This document shows, piece by piece, positions 1 through 7,912 of a stretch of 64,000 bases of DNA. Position 1 is the stretch's first letter; each line of letters begins with the position of its first letter. The position numbers were made by a program, and so were the translations under genes. The notes under the pieces are model-generated. The model made no database searches, was not told where the DNA came from, and was given only the letters and a program-made list of their open reading frames with translations. The stretch is from positions 1 to 64,000 of the IMG/VR virus record IMGVR_UViG_643692013_000008, one strand, 5' to 3'. The stretch comes from a virus (taxonomy: Duplodnaviria > Caudoviricetes).

Positions 1-3
1 ATG

Positions 4-39
4 AAAAAGCCCGCACAACCCATTGATTGTGCGGGCTTG
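4..39 (-). terminator. Intrinsic terminator downstream of the displaced tRNA 3' end
   Basis: AAAAAGCCCGCACAA...TTGTGCGGGCTT hairpin with A-tract (U-tract on the minus strand). Confidence 0.8.
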
Positions 40-42
40 ATT

Positions 43-90
<48 letters not shown>

Positions 91-434
91 AGCCGCGAAA
101 TCTCCCGCAATCGCCCGCCCAGCAACGTTTCCAAGCATTCCGCCCCCAACTCAGTGCTCAAGAAATAAGCACGCTGTCATGCGGAAAGAGCACGGATGAT
201 AGCGCACTTATTGGAGGATCACCTCTGACGATCTCTACCTAAGTGGCATGGTTCCAACGGCGGTCACGCTTGAGGCATCGCGGCAAGGACCTGACGCAGC
301 AGTCCCGGCGCCTCGTCGCTACCACATCGGTCGCGTACAGTGAAGCCCTTCGTAGCTGGCGAGGCATGCACGAGCTTCGTCCAGCTTTCGTAGCTCGGAC
401 GACAAAGGGGATCCAACGGTCGAAAGGAAACTTC

Positions 435-1586
435 CTATGCAAAGTGTGATACCCCAGAATATCTGGGATTTTTAACGACGCTTACGTTCCATCCCATCGA
501 GAAATTCACGCCGTCAACACCCGCCTGGACGGTTCCATACGCACACACTGCGGACACAAGGGTAATCCTCGAAGAAATACGCCCTTTCGCCGCCAACGAC
601 TCGATCGAGGAACGAATTTTCTTTGTAAGCTGTTGATCAAGATGGTTTGCCCCAATCACGACCACACCTCCCGCGTCACCAGTTAATTGCTTGGCCGCCT
701 CTTTTAATTGCCCCTCGATCTTTTCCTCAACTCGACCAAGATCCGGAACAGCATTTGGCCAATGAAATACATTTGGCGCCTTTATCTCGATAGACGCACT
801 CCGAGATGAAGTTAAATTCAAATACAAATCAGCAGATTTTCCCGCTGCACTTTCTGCCTTAGTGATGCCCACACTATTCCCATTTCTTTCCAAATATGAA
901 CAACACAAGAGCATAGCTATAGTGTGATGATATTCGTTACAAAGAGCAGGCCCGATCACATCCTTAAAAAGCGGATGATGCTTCCAACTAGAGGACAATT
1001 CAAGCCACTGCGCGATGTACCTAACCACCATCGCATCGTCCCCTCCGAAATCAAAGCTTTTCCTCTCTACCCCCTGAACGAGGCGATCAACGGCCCACGC
1101 GAGTGGACACCGCATGAAAAATCTATTTCCATTCTTCCTTGCTCGCTCCGCAGTGCCAAGCACACCTAGGAACGCCCCTCCGGTCCAGAATATTAATTCC
1201 GCCTTTAATTTTTCGATCCATTCGACACTTAACTCAAACCCTCCGTGCTGAGGAACAACGCCGGAATTCCTACGCACCCTCTCTATTTCTTGATCACAAG
1301 TTAGTGAATTTTCACCAACACCAAGATCCAGTGTTCCATTTAACCGAAATCGCCCTGAATCTCCCATTGAAATCAAAGCCAATGGCAATGGCTCGATGTC
1401 ACTCCAACTATGAGTAGTAGATATTGCGTGACATTTATAGCACTCAATATCAAGACCAATGAGCCGCCGAGGCTCATATCGCTCGACCAGAACATTTCCA
1501 CACTCTCTGCACACAAAATTACCTTCCCCCGCGCCCCGAAAGAGAGGCCCATCGTTGCACTGCACCAACACCGGTCTTGATTTCAT
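435..1586 (-). CDS. AT-rich accessory protein: N-terminal Zn-finger, C-terminal PD-(D/E)xK-like nuclease motif
   Basis: 383 aa; CRECG and CYKCH pairs; ADL...IEIK motif; visibly lower GC than the phage core. Confidence 0.7.
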   Translation of the reverse strand: MKSRPVLVQCNDGPLFRGAGEGNFVCRECGNVLVERYEPRRLIGLDIECYKCHAISTTHSWSDIEPLPLALISMGDSGRFRLNGTLDLGVGENSLTCDQEIERVRRNSGVVPQHGGFELSVEWIEKLKAELIFWTGGAFLGVLGTAERARKNGNRFFMRCPLAWAVDRLVQGVERKSFDFGGDDAMVVRYIAQWLELSSSWKHHPLFKDVIGPALCNEYHHTIAMLLCCSYLERNGNSVGITKAESAAGKSADLYLNLTSSRSASIEIKAPNVFHWPNAVPDLGRVEEKIEGQLKEAAKQLTGDAGGVVVIGANHLDQQLTKKIRSSIESLAAKGRISSRITLVSAVCAYGTVQAGVDGVNFSMGWNVSVVKNPRYSGVSHFA

Positions 1587-1845
1587 CTTAGAGGTTTAGT
1601 TGCAGATTAATTGTCAGAGAAACAAAATACCCACCCTGCTTAAAATTATCGCCCCCCCAAAAACGCACCGCTCCACTTAGCGCAGCATTATAGAAAGTTA
1701 TCCTGTGCACCATAGCACTTCAAGGCCAACAGTTATAACAACAAAGTTCACGAGGTTGATAGCTCGTTAGGTGCGCTGCAAGTTCTAGACATCGTTGACC
1801 CTCTTTTTTCGCCTTGACGCGTCCATCCTATCTCGAATTGAATAC

Positions 1846-1861
1846 CTGTACATTCATACAG
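1846..1861. promoter_or_regulatory. LexA (SOS) box
   Basis: CTGTACATTCATACAG = CTGT-N8-ACAG, 15 bp upstream of the 1877 start. Confidence 0.82.
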
Positions 1862-1876
1862 GATCAGAGGTAGAAA

Positions 1877-2344
1877 GTGGGCGCGAGGCAGAAACCGAAC
1901 TGGGCCTACATCTGGGAATTCGACTGCCCGATCAGCGGAACGCGCCAGCGCACGTACACCCCGCTGACAGCAGAAGAATTCACGCTCGAAATCTGCCAGC
2001 TCATTCCGGACGTCAACGCAGTCAGGATCGAAGGGACGCAGGTCGATCGGAACGTCGTGCCTGCCGAGCCGGAAGACCCGCCGCCGCTGGAGCGTAAGCG
2101 CTTCCCCGAGTTCCAGCAGCCCACGCGCGCCGAACTGCGAGAGCTGTGGAAGTTGTATCCGGACAATCACGTCGTGCGCCGGACCATCCTTGAGCTGATT
2201 CGAACGCAGGGCCGATTTCATGAGGCCGAGCGGTTGCGGCAGTCCATCCAAGCTGTCTGGCGCGAGGAAGTCGGCGGCCATCTCGTCGCAATGTATCAAC
2301 TGAGACTGCTTCTACAGGAAGAGACAAGGGCCGCCGACTGGTGA
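1877..2344 (+). CDS. SOS-inducible hypothetical protein
   Basis: 155 aa, GAGG RBS, LexA box upstream. Confidence 0.75.
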   Translation: MGARQKPNWAYIWEFDCPISGTRQRTYTPLTAEEFTLEICQLIPDVNAVRIEGTQVDRNVVPAEPEDPPPLERKRFPEFQQPTRAELRELWKLYPDNHVVRRTILELIRTQGRFHEAERLRQSIQAVWREEVGGHLVAMYQLRLLLQEETRAADW

Positions 2345-2373
2345 TGCCCGCACTGCCGGGCGGGCACCTTGGT

Positions 2374-3165
2374 CTAGAACAGCCCCGCCGGCTCCGCCGA
2401 CACATCCCAGCTGAAGACGATCAACTCCCGCCGAGGCACCGAGCGGCCGCCCCCGCTCACCGTGTACTCGATGTCGACCGTCTCGACATGGAAGCCGTCG
2501 AAGATCCGGCGGGTCTCGGGATGGTCGTTCACGCTGAGAATGGCCTTCCCCTTCAAGGCGCGCATGCGGTCTGCGACCGCCCCGTACTCGCTCACGGGAA
2601 ACGGGACGCCATACCCCGTCATCTCGAGATACGGAGGGTCCATGTAGAAAAACGTGTGGCCGCGATCGTACCGATCGACGCAATCCCGCCAGTCCAGTTG
2701 CTCGATGCAGGTCGCCGCCAGCCGGAGATGGGCAGACGACAGCGTCTCCTCAATCCGCCACAGGTTAAGCCCAGGCGGCGACGTTGTGGACGTGCCGAAC
2801 GTCTGCCCTTCCACCTTGCCGCCGAAGCACAGCTGCTGCAAGTAGAAGAACCTGGCCGCTCGCTGGATATCCGTCAGCGTCTCGGGTGGCGTCTTCTGCT
2901 GCCACTCGAACATCGCCCGACTGCTCAGCGCCCACCTGAACTGCCGGACGAACTCCTCGGGGTGGACCTTGACCACCCGGTACAGGTTCACCAACTCGCC
3001 GTTGACGTCGTTGATGATCTCAACGTTCGCGGGCGGCCGCATGAAGTACAACGCGGCCCCGCCAGCAAACACCTCTACATAGCACTCGTGACGCGGAAAC
3101 CGCGGTATGAGCTGATCCGCGAGACGGCGCTTTCCGCCGATCCAGGGAATGATAGGTAAAGCCAT
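2374..3165 (-). CDS. DNA adenine methyltransferase (D12/Dam class)
   Basis: WIGGK, EVFAGGA, NDVN and DPPY motifs; GGAGG RBS. Confidence 0.93.
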   Translation of the reverse strand: MALPIIPWIGGKRRLADQLIPRFPRHECYVEVFAGGAALYFMRPPANVEIINDVNGELVNLYRVVKVHPEEFVRQFRWALSSRAMFEWQQKTPPETLTDIQRAARFFYLQQLCFGGKVEGQTFGTSTTSPPGLNLWRIEETLSSAHLRLAATCIEQLDWRDCVDRYDRGHTFFYMDPPYLEMTGYGVPFPVSEYGAVADRMRALKGKAILSVNDHPETRRIFDGFHVETVDIEYTVSGGGRSVPRRELIVFSWDVSAEPAGLF

Positions 3166-3199
3166 CCGTGACAAACCTCCGATTATTGCTACAATCGGC

Positions 3200-3298
3200 C
3201 CGCCCCCCGGGGGTGGCAGGGCCTTGGCCTGTCACTGGCGCGTTCAGTGATGGGTGGCCACATCGGTGCTGCAACACCGATGCCGGTCGCCCTGTCTT
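3200..3298 (+). ncRNA. Candidate structured small RNA divergent from dam
   Basis: Extended -10 TGCTACAAT (3187-3195), then three stacked hairpins ending in a G-U-containing long stem (3252-3292). Confidence 0.4.
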
Positions 3299-3307
3299 AC
3301 AACTCCC

Positions 3308-4111
3308 TCACGGCATCGCCGCGAGGCTCCTGCTGGTTTCCCTGTACCCGTCGTCGAAGAGCCGCTGCCGGACGGCGGGCGCCATATCTCGGTCGAACGA
3401 GCTCGCGTAGCCGGTCGGCACGCTGACGATCATCGCCCCGCTCTGCTCGTCCGCCGCCATCCTGGCCGCCTCGTTGGACGCCAGCATGAGGTCGATCACC
3501 CGCGACGCGATCGTGCGCAGCCCGTAACGGCCTGGCGCGAGCGGGGCGTCATCGGACCTCAGGAACACGCCCAGACGCGGCACCTCATCCACGGTCAGAT
3601 CGCTCACGGGGATGTTGTCGGCCGTGCCGCCGTCGACGAGCAGCGCGCCAGCGGCGGCCACGGGCGGAAAGACGAACGGAATCGACGCGCTCGCCCGGGC
3701 CGCGAGCGCGATCGGCACTGCCGGCGTCGTGGCGCGCGACAGCTGGAATTCGCGCTCCGTCAGAAGATCGGCCGCAACGATCTTCAATCCGACGTCGATC
3801 TGGTCGAACGTCCGCCCTCCCGTCTGCTGCATGAGGAACGCCAGCATCTCGTCGCCGCTGCAGAGCGCGTTGACCCGGATTACAGACCAGGCCGAGAACC
3901 GCATCATCGGTGACCAGTCGACCGACATGCAGAGTGTGTGCATGTCGGCCAGCGACATGCCGCTGGCGTAGAGCGCAGCGACGATCGAGCCGCCCGACGT
4001 GCCGGCGAGCTCGACGACCTCATACCCGGCATCGGCAACCGCCTGCAGCGCACCGAGGTGCGCCGACAGGCGGAAGCCCGAGCCGCTCAAGGCAACTCGG
4101 ATCTGCTTCAT
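3308..4111 (-). CDS. Patatin-like phospholipase
   Basis: SGSGFR oxyanion loop, GTSGG (GxSxG) nucleophile, ASASIP and DGG motifs; ATGA-coupled to the upstream lipoprotein. Confidence 0.92.
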   Translation of the reverse strand: MKQIRVALSGSGFRLSAHLGALQAVADAGYEVVELAGTSGGSIVAALYASGMSLADMHTLCMSVDWSPMMRFSAWSVIRVNALCSGDEMLAFLMQQTGGRTFDQIDVGLKIVAADLLTEREFQLSRATTPAVPIALAARASASIPFVFPPVAAAGALLVDGGTADNIPVSDLTVDEVPRLGVFLRSDDAPLAPGRYGLRTIASRVIDLMLASNEAARMAADEQSGAMIVSVPTGYASSFDRDMAPAVRQRLFDDGYRETSRSLAAMP

Positions 4112-4587
4112 TGCGCGGCCGCCGAGCTAGCCGGCACTGCTTCGCTGGCCGACGCGGGGGGCGCCGTAGCGGCCGCAGTCGTCGCCGACGCCTGGCCGTA
4201 GACCGACAGGGCCTGCGTAACCGACAGTTGCAGCACCCCGAGTGCCGCGATCGCGATCGGCTTCTGGTTGTCCGGGATCAGCTTCGACGCGAGCACGGCC
4301 GTCTCGATCGCCGGGATGCCGGTGCCGATCAGGGCCTGGGCGGAGGTCACCGTAATCGACGTTGCGGCCGTGCAGAACAGCCCGTTCGCGGCCGCCGCGG
4401 CCGAGACGGCCGGGTCGATCGCGGCCACTGCCACGAGCGTCGGCTGCACCACCGTGCAGCCGTTCTTCACAGCGGTCTGGAGCGTCGCCAGCGCGCCGGC
4501 AACGGATTGCTGGGAGGCGGTCGAGCAACCGGCCAGGGATGCGACGGCCAGCACTGCGCCTGCCGCGAGCAGCATGAGCTTCTTCAT
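4108..4587 (-). CDS. Lipoprotein, possible unimolecular spanin
   Basis: MKK + hydrophobic core + LAGC lipobox, Ser at +2; hydrophobic segment near the C-terminus; 159 aa. Confidence 0.75.
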   Translation of the reverse strand: MKKLMLLAAGAVLAVASLAGCSTASQQSVAGALATLQTAVKNGCTVVQPTLVAVAAIDPAVSAAAAANGLFCTAATSITVTSAQALIGTGIPAIETAVLASKLIPDNQKPIAIAALGVLQLSVTQALSVYGQASATTAAATAPPASASEAVPASSAAAQ

Positions 4588-4660
4588 GGTTAGTACCTTC
4601 GGGAATGCCGCGAGCGCGGCGGGTGGGAAAAGCGTGGGTGCGTGGACGTCAGATGAGGCG

Positions 4661-4984
4661 TTACTGCAGGGTGGGCACCGGCGGCCGGCCAGTGGGCGCC
4701 GACGCCGAGGCCTGATCCGATGCGCCGCTCTGCGGTACCGCGACAGCGACCGATATCCCGGGCGAGGGCTTGATATCGACGGCGTCCGAAGTCGGGGGCG
4801 CCCCGGGCGAGGATGCGCCGCTGTCGCCTGCCCCCCGTCCCTGGGAAACGTGCTTACCCAGGAAGGTGAGGCCCGCGGCCAAGGCCGCGACGTAGCCTGG
4901 CGCATCCGCCTTACCCATCAGGACGAGCGCGCCCCACGCCCCATACAGCAGCACTGCACCAACAAAAACCAGCAGCATGTACAT
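4661..4984 (-). CDS. Small two-TM membrane protein (holin/antiholin-like)
   Basis: GGAGG RBS; two hydrophobic segments, then a Pro/Ser/Ala-rich tail. Confidence 0.65.
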   Translation of the reverse strand: MYMLLVFVGAVLLYGAWGALVLMGKADAPGYVAALAAGLTFLGKHVSQGRGAGDSGASSPGAPPTSDAVDIKPSPGISVAVAVPQSGASDQASASAPTGRPPVPTLQ

Positions 4985-4998
4985 CCGAACCTCCGGCA

Positions 4999-5024
4999 TA
5001 AAAAAAGGCCGCTCGCGGCGGCCG
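4999..5024 (-). terminator. Intrinsic terminator after endolysin
   Basis: GGCCGC-stem hairpin followed by T7 on the minus strand. Confidence 0.7.
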
Positions 5025-5045
5025 GGTGGTGAATTACACGCGACG

Positions 5046-5501
5046 TTAGCCGTCGAGCGCGCTCAGGTTGTGCGACTTGATGATGGCGATGATCTTCGCC
5101 GCATAGTTCGGGTCGGTGGCGTAGCCAGCCGCCGCGACTGCGGTCGCGAACGTCGTGCCGCTGGTGTACGCGAATGCGGCGGCGTAGCGGGGATTGACGA
5201 TCAGGAACTGTGCGTGATCGTTGAGGCTCGCGAGCCAGTCGGAATAGACGCGCCACCTGGCTGTCACGGTGGTCGGCTTCCCCGCCACGTACTCGGTCGT
5301 GGGCAGCATGACCGTCGGCCCCTTCCACGAGCCGTCTGCCTTCACCCCAAACAGGTTGAAGTAGCGCTGGGCGAGCTGCGAGGAAGCCCACCCGGACTCG
5401 AGCGCGGCCTGCGCAACAACGAAGCTCGCCGGGATCTTGGTGGACGTCGCCAGTTGGCACGCCGCCGGCGAGATCGCGTTGATGAAGTCATTCGGTGTCA
5501 T
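5046..5501 (-). CDS. Endolysin, GH73 (FlgJ-like glucosaminidase/muramidase)
   Basis: AQAALESGW, NLFGVKA and GYATDPNY motifs. Confidence 0.92.
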   Translation of the reverse strand: MTPNDFINAISPAACQLATSTKIPASFVVAQAALESGWASSQLAQRYFNLFGVKADGSWKGPTVMLPTTEYVAGKPTTVTARWRVYSDWLASLNDHAQFLIVNPRYAAAFAYTSGTTFATAVAAAGYATDPNYAAKIIAIIKSHNLSALDG

Positions 5502-5503
5502 GG

Positions 5504-5911
5504 TCACCCCAAGAGGAACGTGAAGGCCGCATGCGCCCAGTCGGGCACCGGCTCGTGATGCAGGTAGCGATAAATGACGATGGCGACCAGCGTGAACGCG
5601 GCCAGTTGCCCGACCACGTTGCGCATCAGAAATCGCCATGCATCGGCAATCCGGCAGAGCGCACGCATCACCTTCTGACCGCCCTGCCACGTCTCGACCA
5701 TGGACTGCGTATTGGCCACGACGGTGTCGAGCTTTCCGTCTTGTATCCGGAGGTGTTCGTCCTGCTGCCGAAGGTGTGCGTCCTGGCGCTCGAGGTGACT
5801 CCTGACCTGCGCCTCCATCTGGTTCATTCGTGCTTCCAACTTCGAGAAGCGGCGGTCTCCGCTGCGCAGTCGCTCCTCGACGCCAGCGTTGGTCGATCTT
5901 TGTTCAGGCAT
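5504..5911 (-). CDS. Putative holin (coiled coil + C-terminal TM)
   Basis: Directly upstream of endolysin; hydrophobic VVGQLAAFTLVAIVIY segment. Confidence 0.6.
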   Translation of the reverse strand: MPEQRSTNAGVEERLRSGDRRFSKLEARMNQMEAQVRSHLERQDAHLRQQDEHLRIQDGKLDTVVANTQSMVETWQGGQKVMRALCRIADAWRFLMRNVVGQLAAFTLVAIVIYRYLHHEPVPDWAHAAFTFLLG

Positions 5912-5941
5912 TTGATCCCCGGGAAAGGAAGTGCAGCGCGC

Positions 5942-7912
5942 TCAGGTTCCAGTGCAAACGAACTGCACGACGTCGGTTCCGGTGCCGCTCAAAGCGAACG
6001 AGGTGCCGGAGGTTTGTGAGATGCGCACCGCGTTGGTAGCGGTCGTGTCGGTGGCCGTGCATGCATAGCTGGTCGACGAGGTATAGGCAGCTGCGCCCGA
6101 GAGCGTGACCGTGGCCGCGCCCGAGGCGAGTGTCGCCGTCCCCTTCACCATGTGCGGCGCGTTGGCGGCCGCGCCGGAGGTCGAATACAACGGCATCGCG
6201 CCGGTGCCGGTCGCGGCCAGGTTCCCGTAGACGGCGGCCGAGCCTCCAACCTGCAGCTTGTTAGTGCCGTCGTCCGTGCCGCCGACGAGCAGGCGGCCGC
6301 CGTATTTGGTGAGATTGATGTTGAACTTCGTCCCGGCTGACGCCGTGTTGTATGCCTCGACCGCGAGCTCGGATGCGGTGTCGGAATAGAAGCTCGCCGT
6401 GGCCGAGTTGCTCAGCTTCATCTGCACCGCGCCGCCGCCCTTGGGACTGAGCGTCACGGGAATCGTGGCGTCCGAGCCGATGGCGGCCAGCGCTGGCGAC
6501 GAGCCGGCCGCAGCACTCATCGAGCTCAACGAGTTGCCGCTGTTCACGGACTGGTAGAAGCTTCCCGATCCGGTGAGATTGAACGGCGCGGAGTAGTTCG
6601 ATGCGCTGTCGAGCTGCGCGCCGAAGATCTGGTTTCCGGCAGCGCCGTTGATCTCGGCGACGCACGATGTTGCGTTCGTCACCCCGTATGTCTGGCAGCC
6701 GAGCCCCATGGCGGTATTGTTCGACGAGCCATCCAGCACGAGGCCGCGCTGAAGGCTGTTGATCGACTCGATCCACGTCGATGCGATACGCGTGTATGCG
6801 GAGTTCTTGATGTACAAGACGTCGCCGAGCGCGTTGTCGATCGTGTTGCCAAAGAACCCGAAGTCGTTGTTGTTCCCTGCCAGGCGCACGACGTTGATCG
6901 ACGCGTTGTAGGGATGCGAGTTCTGGATCATCGTGGTCTGCGCGCCGGGGTTGGCGTAGATGCAGTAGTTCACGACGAACCCGCCGTTCATGATGAAGCC
7001 GTCGATCGTCGAGTCGGATGCGAACGCCCCCAACTCGATCCCGGCCTTGCCGGCAGTCGTCGAGTAGATGCGGATGTTCTTCAGCCGCACGTCGTGCATG
7101 TAGACCGACGTCGTCGGGTTGCCGTCGATCTTGATCGACGAATAGCCGGCCGGGACATTGTTGAAGGCCAGGTTCAGCAGGTCGAGCGTCTGCGCGAACG
7201 TGGTGTCGAGCGTGTTCGCGGTGCCGGCGGTGCCGTCGAACTTCAGATCACGGATCGTCGAGTGCGAGTCGAACGTGAAGGCGCCCGCGATCGCCGGATA
7301 GCTGATCGAGCCGCCCGTCTGGATCAGGACACTGTTCGGGCCGTCTCCGTAGAGCGTGAATCCGACGGTCTGCGGCAAGACCAGGCCGCTCTCGCGATAC
7401 TGGCCCGCCGGGATATAGACGGTCTTCGCTCCCGAGTTCAGCGCGGCCTGGATGCAGGCCGTGCTATCGGCTACACCGGTTTTGTCGCAGCCCGGGAAGT
7501 CGAGGATGCTCACCACGTCGCTCAGCTTGCTTGCGACCGAGCGGCCGCCGGCGCCGGACAGCGATGCCTGGAACTGCAGATTGCCGGTCGCGCCCAGCGC
7601 CGTGGTCGCGCCGGTGCCGCCCGAGGCAAACGAAAGAGGCGTCGAGAACGAAACGCTCCCCGTACTGGTCAACGTCGCGAAATTGCCGGTCGAGAAGTTG
7701 CCCGTCGCAAACGACGCCGTGGTGCCGTTGAGCGGCCCCGTGAGGGTTCCACCCGCCACCGGCAATGCGTTTGCGGCAACGCGGCTGAATGCCGTGTTCA
7801 ACTGCTCCGCGGTCAGCACCTGGCCAGGAACAAACTGCCCCATCGCGAGATGGGGCGCACAGACGGCTACCAGCGAGACCGCGAGCAGCAGCGTTTTGAA
7901 AATGCGATTCAT
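5942..7912 (-). CDS. Tailspike-like right-handed beta-helix glycanase with N-terminal signal peptide
   Basis: VSILDF..D.TG..DST..IQAA pectate-lyase-3-type cap, N/G/I-rich rungs, fibre motifs GGTLTGPL and GGTGATT; GAGGA RBS. Confidence 0.85.
   Translation of the reverse strand: MNRIFKTLLLAVSLVAVCAPHLAMGQFVPGQVLTAEQLNTAFSRVAANALPVAGGTLTGPLNGTTASFATGNFSTGNFATLTSTGSVSFSTPLSFASGGTGATTALGATGNLQFQASLSGAGGRSVASKLSDVVSILDFPGCDKTGVADSTACIQAALNSGAKTVYIPAGQYRESGLVLPQTVGFTLYGDGPNSVLIQTGGSISYPAIAGAFTFDSHSTIRDLKFDGTAGTANTLDTTFAQTLDLLNLAFNNVPAGYSSIKIDGNPTTSVYMHDVRLKNIRIYSTTAGKAGIELGAFASDSTIDGFIMNGGFVVNYCIYANPGAQTTMIQNSHPYNASINVVRLAGNNNDFGFFGNTIDNALGDVLYIKNSAYTRIASTWIESINSLQRGLVLDGSSNNTAMGLGCQTYGVTNATSCVAEINGAAGNQIFGAQLDSASNYSAPFNLTGSGSFYQSVNSGNSLSSMSAAAGSSPALAAIGSDATIPVTLSPKGGGAVQMKLSNSATASFYSDTASELAVEAYNTASAGTKFNINLTKYGGRLLVGGTDDGTNKLQVGGSAAVYGNLAATGTGAMPLYSTSGAAANAPHMVKGTATLASGAATVTLSGAAAYTSSTSYACTATDTTATNAVRISQTSGTSFALSGTGTDVVQFVCTGT

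Follow-up and report, generated by a model that had tools for sequence, protein, structure and literature searches.

How do phages of Gram-negative bacteria open the outer membrane when their genomes encode no recognisable spanin? About 13-15% of the phages with Gram-negative hosts are of this kind (91 of 677; PMC6139136; bioRxiv 10.1101/515445), and, apart from one cationic peptide, the way in which they open the outer membrane is unexplained. The question arises at a locus in a 64,000-nucleotide stretch of DNA, positions 1 to 64,000 of the IMG/VR virus record IMGVR_UViG_643692013_000008 (Duplodnaviria; Caudoviricetes). This stretch, hereafter the window, was taken from a provirus record of 107,572 bases, and its host is Burkholderia glumae, in which identical or 96-98% identical proteins are recorded. 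At 3308-4984, behind genes for a holin-like protein and an endolysin of glycoside hydrolase family 73 (GH73), lie the genes of a small membrane protein, a lipoprotein, and a patatin-like phospholipase. A preliminary description of this DNA proposed that lysis is assisted here by the phospholipase, that the three genes stand instead of the spanin genes Rz/Rz1, and that the lipoprotein serves as a unimolecular spanin (u-spanin), an activator, or an immunity partner. We found about 150 related phage loci with a lipoprotein of this type and one of three unrelated phospholipases, and the module is a concrete candidate for an opener of the outer membrane in phages without spanins.

Three phospholipase families share one slot behind the lipoprotein

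A scan of viral contigs with the lipoprotein of the window yielded 79 loci. The open reading frames (ORFs) downstream of the lipoprotein were counted by a frame-by-frame search and assigned by clustering and Pfam to three unrelated families. A lipolytic gene lies directly downstream in 71 of the 79 loci, and about eight loci have none of the three enzymes. The class-3 lipase (Lipase_3, PF01764) was found in 41 loci and, in addition, as gp42 of phage BgManors32; DUF1353 (PF07087) was found in 23 loci, and patatin in seven and in the window. The downstream ORF overlaps the stop codon of the lipoprotein gene by four nucleotides (ATGA or GTGA) or by one nucleotide in 69 of the 79 loci. The class-3 lipase keeps GHSxG, D148, and D181-H182 in 36 distinct sequences, and DUF1353 keeps HDxxY in 20 distinct sequences. 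A signal peptide is absent from all three families, suggesting that the enzymes would depend on the holin in the same manner as a soluble endolysin. The slot follows varied endolysins and occurs both in prophages and in isolated phages. Within a single lipoprotein superfamily, the same translationally coupled position is taken by any of three unrelated families, all with their catalytic residues preserved. This pattern supports the view that the link between phospholipase and lysis cassette is a conserved, selected arrangement and that the enzyme is not a chance neighbour.

A reverse survey was started from the patatin, whose clade comprises 344 clusters from Burkholderia, Paraburkholderia, Ralstonia, Janthinobacterium, Candidimonas, and others. 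A lipoprotein with a lipobox is encoded directly upstream of the patatin homologue, nearly always overlapping its start, in 44 of 59 viral loci. The same coupling was seen in 21 of 22 loci that were found with the patatin alignment in species-representative genomes, which were not pre-selected as viral; for 18 of these 22 loci, the 2 kb upstream include an endolysin gene. Most lipoproteins of the patatin loci form a second sequence family (A3). This family is tied to that of the window lipoprotein by hhalign (99.5%, E = 3e-23), and its hidden Markov model matches the window lipoprotein with an E value of 2.5e-17. On these profile comparisons, the patatin-linked lipoproteins belong to the same superfamily as the window lipoprotein. 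The pairing of lipoprotein and phospholipase recurs in all three counts (71/79, 44/59, and 21/22 loci); a possible role as a substitute for spanins is discussed below.

When the enzyme classes were mapped onto a maximum-likelihood tree of 80 lipoproteins, no fewer than 10 changes of class were required, compared to a mean of 26.6 after shuffling. Patatin alone requires six changes, five of which are forced by strongly supported branches. The window lipoprotein groups with those of loci L002 and L003 with 100% support and 94% identity, but in both of these loci the slot is filled by the lipase instead of patatin. The DNA sequences of the window and L002 are 95% identical only over 4626-4189, which corresponds to the lipoprotein core; the small membrane gene upstream and the enzyme downstream both differ. 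The Ala/Ser/Pro tails of the lipoproteins are not specific to the enzyme class. Since lipoprotein cores with 94-95% identity precede enzymes of different folds, a role as a specific activator, chaperone, or immunity protein is unlikely. The lack of co-variation and the unspecific tails led us to reject the proposal of a specific activator or immunity partner.

Properties of the patatin and the lipoprotein

The patatin of the window matched PF01734 over residues 7-171 with 99.6 bits (cut-off, 27.7). Its catalytic dyad is intact (G-T-S39-G-G and D160-G-G), the oxyanion loop S-G-S-G-F-R is found at residues 9-14, and S39, D160, G161, and G162 are invariant in 22 patatin homologues. The location of the SGSGFR loop at the extreme N-terminus indicates that the protein has no signal peptide. 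The start codon overlaps the TGA of the lipoprotein gene by four nucleotides (ATGA). The preliminary reading of a coupled patatin with intact motifs and no signal peptide was therefore correct, and lipolytic activity is predicted from these motifs. In a sequence-profile search, the closest solved structure was PlpD (PDB 5FQU, E = 1.2e-32), and the CapV-like structure 9IOM gave only 1.6e-8. The best match in PADLOC was the phospholipase effector of the cyclic-oligonucleotide-based anti-phage signaling system (CBASS), with a weak score of 8e-6. An effector of the CBASS CapV type was rejected: no CD-NTase is adjacent, the neighbours are the lipoprotein and a Dam methylase, and the PADLOC match is weak. 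A tblastn search of 50,697 deposited phage records gave no match to the patatin.

The GC content at third codon positions is 0.88 for both the patatin and lipoprotein genes, compared to 0.78-0.88 for the endolysin and tail genes. In this respect, the earlier statement that the patatin is not a recent moron is consistent with the composition. Nevertheless, the patatin is not part of an old core, as it fills the slot that is held by the class-3 lipase in the closest relatives. This indicates a cassette replacement among phages of similar composition.

The lipoprotein has the signal peptide MKKLMLLAAGAVLAVASLAGC, with a positively charged N-region, a hydrophobic core, and the lipobox LAGC, and Ser is found at position +2. 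The lipobox cysteine is invariant in 31 homologues, and so are C44 and C72. These features suggest that the protein is exported and lipid-anchored in the envelope. AlphaFold2, run with the 31 homologues, predicted a four-helix bundle for residues 30-135 with a predicted local distance difference test score of 80-90 and a disordered Ala/Ser/Pro tail. We propose that the core is a disulfide-stabilised four-helix bundle. The hydrophobic stretch that had been noticed near the C-terminus is present as a helix at residues 109-131 (mean Kyte-Doolittle value of about 1.5, counted by hand), but it is not conserved as a transmembrane domain (TMD): in many homologues it is polar and contains Arg, Asn, Asp, or Gln. 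AlphaFold2 packs it as helix 4 of the bundle, with a 25-residue polar tail after it. The packing of this helix and the polar residues in the homologues indicate that it is not the C-terminal TMD of a unimolecular spanin. The lipobox is present and a conserved C-terminal TMD is absent, and the proposed u-spanin of the T1 gp11 type was rejected.

The lipoprotein has no family in PHROG or Pfam, and in the ESM Atlas it matched unnamed clusters only. All 46 clusters of its family (at 90% identity) come from Burkholderia and Paraburkholderia. When 1.84 billion representative proteins were searched with a profile, the superfamily was extended to 143 clusters (E of 1e-3 or lower; clusters at 50% identity), and it is therefore modest in size and lineage-restricted. 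Among the deposited phage records, the sole match to the lipoprotein was BgManors32.

Search for a conventional spanin

Strict and relaxed lipobox scans of the 64 kb of the window identified the product of 4108-4587 as the sole credible lipoprotein; the relaxed scan added only two implausible antisense ORFs. No other credible lipoprotein was found in the complete genomes of BgManors32 and Ralstonia phage Raharianne. The Rz family (PF03245) had no match in the 107,572-base provirus record. DUF2514 (PF10721) likewise had no match in this record, although its absence is weak because its control matched nowhere. Spanin families are many and only partly profiled. The small protein encoded upstream of the lipoprotein consists of a hydrophobic hairpin and a Pro/Ala/Ser tail with no coiled coil. 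It does not co-vary with the lipoprotein, and these two properties together argue against a canonical two-component spanin. A canonical outer-membrane subunit (o-spanin) of the two-component type is not supported as the identity of the lipoprotein: no inner-membrane subunit (i-spanin) with an N-terminal TMD and a periplasmic coiled coil is adjacent or overlapping. The scans and the Rz search agree with the preliminary description, in which neither a coiled-coil i-spanin nor a nested o-spanin had been seen. Its claim that the module stands instead of Rz/Rz1 holds to the extent that no conventional spanin pair was detected in the window; the comparisons described below do not establish the replacement itself.

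Phospholipases and lysis genes in other phages

The DUF1353 family provides a link to measured activity. TtaP, a DUF1353 member encoded in the typhoid toxin islet, has measured phospholipase A2 activity (PMC11525133). The authors of that study noted its kinship to prophage DUF1353 genes and suggested that it perturbs the outer membrane beside a phage-type muramidase (PMC11525133). Two phages, Bas80 of E. coli and gmqsjt-1 of Salmonella, have lysis cassettes that end with a DUF1353 gene, which immediately follows an Rz-like/DUF2514 spanin gene. In Pseudomonas phage phiPMW, the DUF1353 gene abuts the lysozyme gene. The terminal position in the lysis cassettes of a virulent coliphage and a Salmonella phage argues for a role of such enzymes in the lytic cycle. 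The DUF1353 genes of Bas80, gmqsjt-1, and phiPMW are annotated as tail assembly chaperones (PHROG 1158). This annotation looks wrong, given that TtaP is a phospholipase A2.

In the relatives of the window locus, a membrane protein of 60-130 residues, belonging to at least two sequence types, is encoded before the lipoprotein, and the endolysin gene lies before that. The endolysins are of the GH24, GH73, GH19, and GH108-like types. Of 53 distinct loci, 39 have a preceding gene that overlaps the small membrane gene or is no more than 30 nucleotides away from it. An HNH-type ORF lies upstream in 17 of 51 distinct loci, as in BgManors32, and the endolysin lies before this ORF. The trio of small membrane protein, lipoprotein, and enzyme is present in the isolated phages BgManors32 (gp44-gp42), Raharianne (gp56-gp58), and vB_Sb_QDWS (gp16-gp14). 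It closes the late lysis-gene operon in BgManors32 and Raharianne, and a minor tail protein gene is located between the endolysin and the trio in vB_Sb_QDWS.

Proposed role of the module and alternative explanations

On balance, we lean towards the interpretation that 3308-4984 is a terminal late-lysis module, in which a phospholipase without a signal peptide would attack envelope lipid after the action of holin and endolysin, and the lipoprotein would be a generic anchored partner. Late in infection, the patatin would build up in the cytoplasm, and the lipoprotein would be exported and lipid-anchored in the envelope. The holin would open the inner membrane, and the GH73 endolysin would cut the wall. 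The patatin could then reach the periplasmic membrane leaflets and hydrolyse phospholipid, and the resulting lysophospholipids and fatty acids would weaken the outer membrane and complete or speed the rupture of the envelope. The lipoprotein, as the constant partner, could be a non-canonical spanin-like tether acting with the upstream small membrane protein. Alternatively, it may generically perturb or dock at the membrane, letting any of the three unrelated lipases act. We infer the time of expression, the localisation, the substrate, and the effect on lysis of the module. No sigma70-like promoter was found on the coding strand within 2000-6200, and read-through from the late operon may therefore be the simplest route of expression.

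Several observations weigh against this interpretation. The lipoprotein does not co-vary with the enzyme class, so that a direct, specific partnership between them is unsupported. About 21 related loci have an extra small protein, in some cases a lipoprotein, encoded upstream of the module, which calls for caution about a module that stands instead of Rz/Rz1. The position of DUF1353 after canonical spanin genes in Bas80 and gmqsjt-1 shows that phospholipases can accompany spanins and need not replace them, and in Campylobacter phage PC14 a DUF1353 gene is located among DNA-metabolism genes, outside the lysis genes. In the window, a terminator-like hairpin splits the endolysin from the module, which could be expressed with the late genes only by read-through or antitermination. 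The module also adjoins cargo genes (the Dam methylase gene and a low-GC gene) at the prophage end, a typical position of morons. An active phospholipase in the cytoplasm should harm the inner membrane early, and some control would be needed. The predicted structure of the lipoprotein gives little guidance: Foldseek found no match in the PDB at E of 0.001 or lower, and VIA-align, run against 48,161 chains, returned only generic helical hairpins with Z of about 8, which is under the noise for helical proteins. Finally, the role of the module in lysis is proposed from sequence comparison.

A broader proposal is that phages of Gram-negative bacteria have, in addition to spanins and disruptin peptides, a third class of system that disrupts the outer membrane, an enzymatic one made up of the lipoprotein, the phospholipase, and the small membrane protein. 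In phages without spanins, such a system would suffice to complete lysis. The stand-alone DUF1353, patatin, and lipase genes of other lysis cassettes would belong to the same class. We put this proposal forward tentatively and consider it less likely than not.

Rather unlikely, but the strongest of the alternatives, is a non-canonical spanin whose two components are the small membrane protein and the lipoprotein and which opens the outer membrane unaided. The phospholipase would then be a post-lysis accessory, which might digest membrane debris and vesicles in which progeny would otherwise be caught, or might assist in the next infection. The order of small transmembrane (TM) protein, lipoprotein, and lipase mirrors that of i-spanin, o-spanin, and DUF1353 in Bas80 and gmqsjt-1, and the lipoprotein of the module is the only one in the window and in the two complete phages. 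Its conserved periplasmic cysteines, the flexible Pro/Ala/Ser tails on both proteins, and its independence of the enzyme class also fit a spanin. However, the upstream protein has no coiled-coil periplasmic domain and often comprises just 60-70 residues. Moreover, a protein of an unrelated family can take its place next to a lipoprotein core that remains 95% identical, and interacting spanin subunits should co-vary. The small number of lipoproteins that lack an enzyme (about 8 of 79) fits an obligate pair better than an optional accessory, and translational coupling is conserved in all three enzyme classes.

We consider it improbable that the pair is lysogenic-conversion cargo, in which the phospholipase is a toxin or competition factor and the lipoprotein provides self-protection, as in the type VI Tle/Tli pairs. 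A lipoprotein beside a lipase is the architecture of such pairs. The location at the prophage end after a terminator-like hairpin would suit cargo, NCBI labels some homologues "exotoxin", and the closest relatives of known structure are patatins like ExoU, VipD, and PlpD. An immunity protein would be expected to stay with its effector, whereas lipoprotein cores with 94-95% identity precede the patatin in the window and Lipase_3 in L002; as the neighbours are phage late genes, a Tle/Tli pair was rejected. The enzyme has no signal peptide, no secretion-system genes are nearby, and the coding strand upstream is free of promoter-like sites. Most relatives show a continuous series of overlapping genes from the endolysin or HNH gene to the module, and the same module closes the late operon in isolated phages. 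A defence or exclusion system, with the lipoprotein blocking superinfection and the phospholipase as an abortive-infection effector, is very improbable. CBASS and other defence systems use patatins as effectors, defence genes are frequently found at the ends of prophages, and PADLOC returned a CBASS effector (8e-6), but this match is weak and has no counterpart for the lipoprotein, the lipase, or DUF1353. Neither a cyclase nor a sensor gene adjoins the pair, PlpD and not CapV is the closest relative of known structure, and a linkage to endolysin and late operon over about 150 loci is unexpected for a defence island. Both the cargo and the defence explanations fit the position at the prophage end, but neither is consistent with the absence of co-variation and of secretion signals or with the operon structure of the relatives.

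Comparison with known systems

The late-lysis module resembles lambda Rz/Rz1 and T1 gp11, as described in a census of spanins (PMC6139136), in that its genes come directly after the endolysin and encode an inner-membrane protein and then a lipoprotein with conserved periplasmic cysteines. As with spanins, the phage has no second lipoprotein, and the module presumably acts on the outer membrane. Unlike Rz/Rz1, the module has no coiled-coil i-spanin, no embedded or overlapping gene pair of that kind, and no match to the Rz family in Pfam. Its lipoprotein is a 138-residue helical bundle, not a short unstructured chain, and has no conserved C-terminal TMD; in addition, the upstream partner does not co-vary, and an enzyme is obligatorily coupled.

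LysB of mycobacteriophages is a lipid esterase of the lysis cassette that acts on the outer lipid layer after the endolysin, and it is accepted as the functional counterpart of spanins for mycobacterial hosts (PMC8309991). The module likewise places an enzyme that cuts lipid esters in the lysis cassette. In contrast to LysB, a cutinase-like alpha/beta hydrolase that cleaves the mycolyl-arabinogalactan ester, the module has a Gram-negative host, a patatin, class-3 lipase, or DUF1353 enzyme, and a conserved lipoprotein partner. A LysB-type esterase was rejected as the identity of the window enzyme, which has the patatin fold; the resemblance is functional only. In Wolbachia phage WO, a patatin gene lies by a holin-like gene at the end of the structural genes, and its product has been proposed, though not tested, as a lysis factor (PMC9203015). 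There, the patatin stands in the place of the endolysin, together with an ankyrin protein, and the host has no detectable peptidoglycan, whereas the module has a patatin that is coupled to a lipoprotein and comes after an ordinary GH73 endolysin.

One of the three enzymes of the slot, DUF1353, is a measured phospholipase A2 next to a phage-type muramidase in TtaP/TtsA (PMC11525133). Unlike the module, TtaP/TtsA is a chromosomal toxin-secretion islet, for which no lipoprotein partner has been reported and no phenotype has been found so far (PMC11525133). PlpD of Pseudomonas aeruginosa (PDB 5FQU/5FYA) has the same Ser-Asp dyad as the window patatin. The PlpD patatin domain is carried as passenger by a type Vd autotransporter, which has an export route of its own, whereas the phage patatin is a stand-alone protein of 267 residues with no signal.

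Colicin lysis lipoproteins, which serve in bacteriocin release and comprise about 30 residues, activate the host outer-membrane phospholipase A, a barrel enzyme. In both cases, a lipoprotein and a phospholipase would permeabilise the Gram-negative envelope for product release. Unlike in colicin release, the phage supplies both the lipoprotein and the enzyme of the module; the enzyme would be a soluble protein of the cytoplasm, and the lipoprotein forms a helical bundle. None of the systems compared here joins a conserved phage lipoprotein to interchangeable phospholipases behind a normal endolysin, and we found no description of a lipoprotein-lipase lysis module in the literature. A GTA paper (PMC13236601) and a tailocin paper (PMC5411513) had no bearing on the module.

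If the proposed role is correct, the module would give the unnamed lipoprotein family (143 clusters at 50% identity) its first functional context, would argue against the widespread "tail assembly chaperone" label on DUF1353, and would suggest an origin for the typhoid-islet phospholipase TtaP. From an applied point of view, lipid-cutting helpers could let endolysins act from outside on Gram-negative bacteria.

Layout of the window locus and additional observations

The features of the window locus and those named in other loci are collected in Table 1. All genes of interest in the window are on the minus strand, in the 5' to 3' order tailspike-like gene, holin-like gene, GH73 endolysin gene, hairpin, small membrane protein gene, lipoprotein gene, and patatin gene.

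Table 1. Positions of the module, its neighbours, and the features of other loci mentioned in the text.
Feature	Source	Position	Strand	Remarks
Holin-like protein, 135 aa	Window	5504-5911	-	N-terminal coiled-coil-like region, one C-terminal TM segment
GH73 endolysin, about 153 aa	Window	5046-5507	-	Pfam Glucosaminidase PF01832, 8.7e-36; PHROG endolysin families down to 2e-52
Terminator-like hairpin	Window	5023-5000	-	GGCCGC-CGCGA-GCGGCC + T7; 6 G-C pairs, 5-nt loop; between endolysin and small membrane gene
Small inner-membrane protein, 107 aa	Window	4661-4984	-	Hydrophobic hairpin, then Pro/Ala/Ser-rich tail ending PTLQ
Lipoprotein, 159 aa	Window	4108-4587	-	Signal peptide and LAGC lipobox
Patatin-like phospholipase, 267 aa	Window	3308-4111	-	PF01734, 3.5e-28; no signal peptide
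Tailspike-like protein	Window	5942-7912	-	Directly upstream of the lysis genes
383-aa gene	Window	435-1586	-	Low GC (48%)
Sigma70-like site	Window	3168-3195	+	GTGACA-16-TACAAT with TG
tRNA 3' end	Window	40-95		Reverse complement; acceptor and T-arm
DUF1353 gene	L169 (Bas80)	3456-3797		
DUF1353 gene	L170 (gmqsjt-1)	2456-2797		
DUF1353 gene	L172 (Pseudomonas phage phiPMW)	2441-2794		
HNH-type ORF	L001	6734-7378		phrog_8048
HNH-type ORF	L140	3246-3815		phrog_8048
HNH-type ORF	L141	3171-3785		phrog_8048
Extra beta-rich protein	L030	5738-5953		
Extra beta-rich protein	L027	5767-5973		
Extra beta-rich protein	L057	1174-1371		
Raharianne gp51	L140	1218-2024		GDSL-type esterase/lipase

The holin-like protein is 43% identical to gp47 of BgManors32, the gene of which precedes the BgManors32 endolysin gene. 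It has no Pfam family, and its PHROG matches are weak; we presume from the gene position only that it is the holin. The GTG start codon of the endolysin overlaps the stop codon of the holin-like gene. The hairpin with its T7 run is the sole such site within 2000-6200 and may act as a terminator or attenuator. The ATG of the small membrane protein is at 4984, with a GGAGG Shine-Dalgarno sequence five nucleotides before it. This protein has no family in Pfam, PHROG, or PADLOC, and it likely, though not certainly, has two TM segments, as the second hydrophobic stretch is short.

Downstream of the patatin gene are the Dam methylase gene, a 155-aa ORF, the low-GC 383-aa gene, and the 3' end of a tRNA, which together indicate the prophage end. 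The 383-aa gene lies between the attachment site and the Dam methylase gene and had no match in Pfam, PHROGs, or PADLOC. The tRNA 3' end lacks CCA and ends with ...CGCCCCGACCA; it probably marks the core of the attachment site at the prophage end. ARAGORN and Rfam detected nothing in 1-6500, and thus no whole tRNA. The sigma70-like site, the only promoter-like site in 2000-6200, is directed antisense into the patatin gene.

The HNH-type ORF between the endolysin and small membrane genes was observed in Burkholderia, Ralstonia, and "Shewanella" phages and is absent from the window. The extra protein of about 21 loci comprises 62-72 residues, is beta-rich, and has the motifs VEHVQVLP and, at the C-terminus, GAKWRF; a lipobox is present in some members, and no PHROG or Pfam family was found for it. 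Raharianne has a second gene for an esterase/lipase, that of gp51, which immediately precedes the lysis genes but is oriented in the opposite direction. The small membrane proteins and lipoproteins of the module loci very often end in Gln (PTLQ, AASQ, APLQ, or PQQ; 4661-4666 and 4111-4113 in the window). For the lipoprotein, the terminal Gln may be explained by the fit of CAA-TGA to the ATGA overlap, and no such reason is seen for the small protein. The tailspike-like protein starts with a Sec-type signal peptide (MNRIFKTLLLAVSLVAVCAPHLAMG), suggesting that several late proteins of the phage are sent to the envelope.

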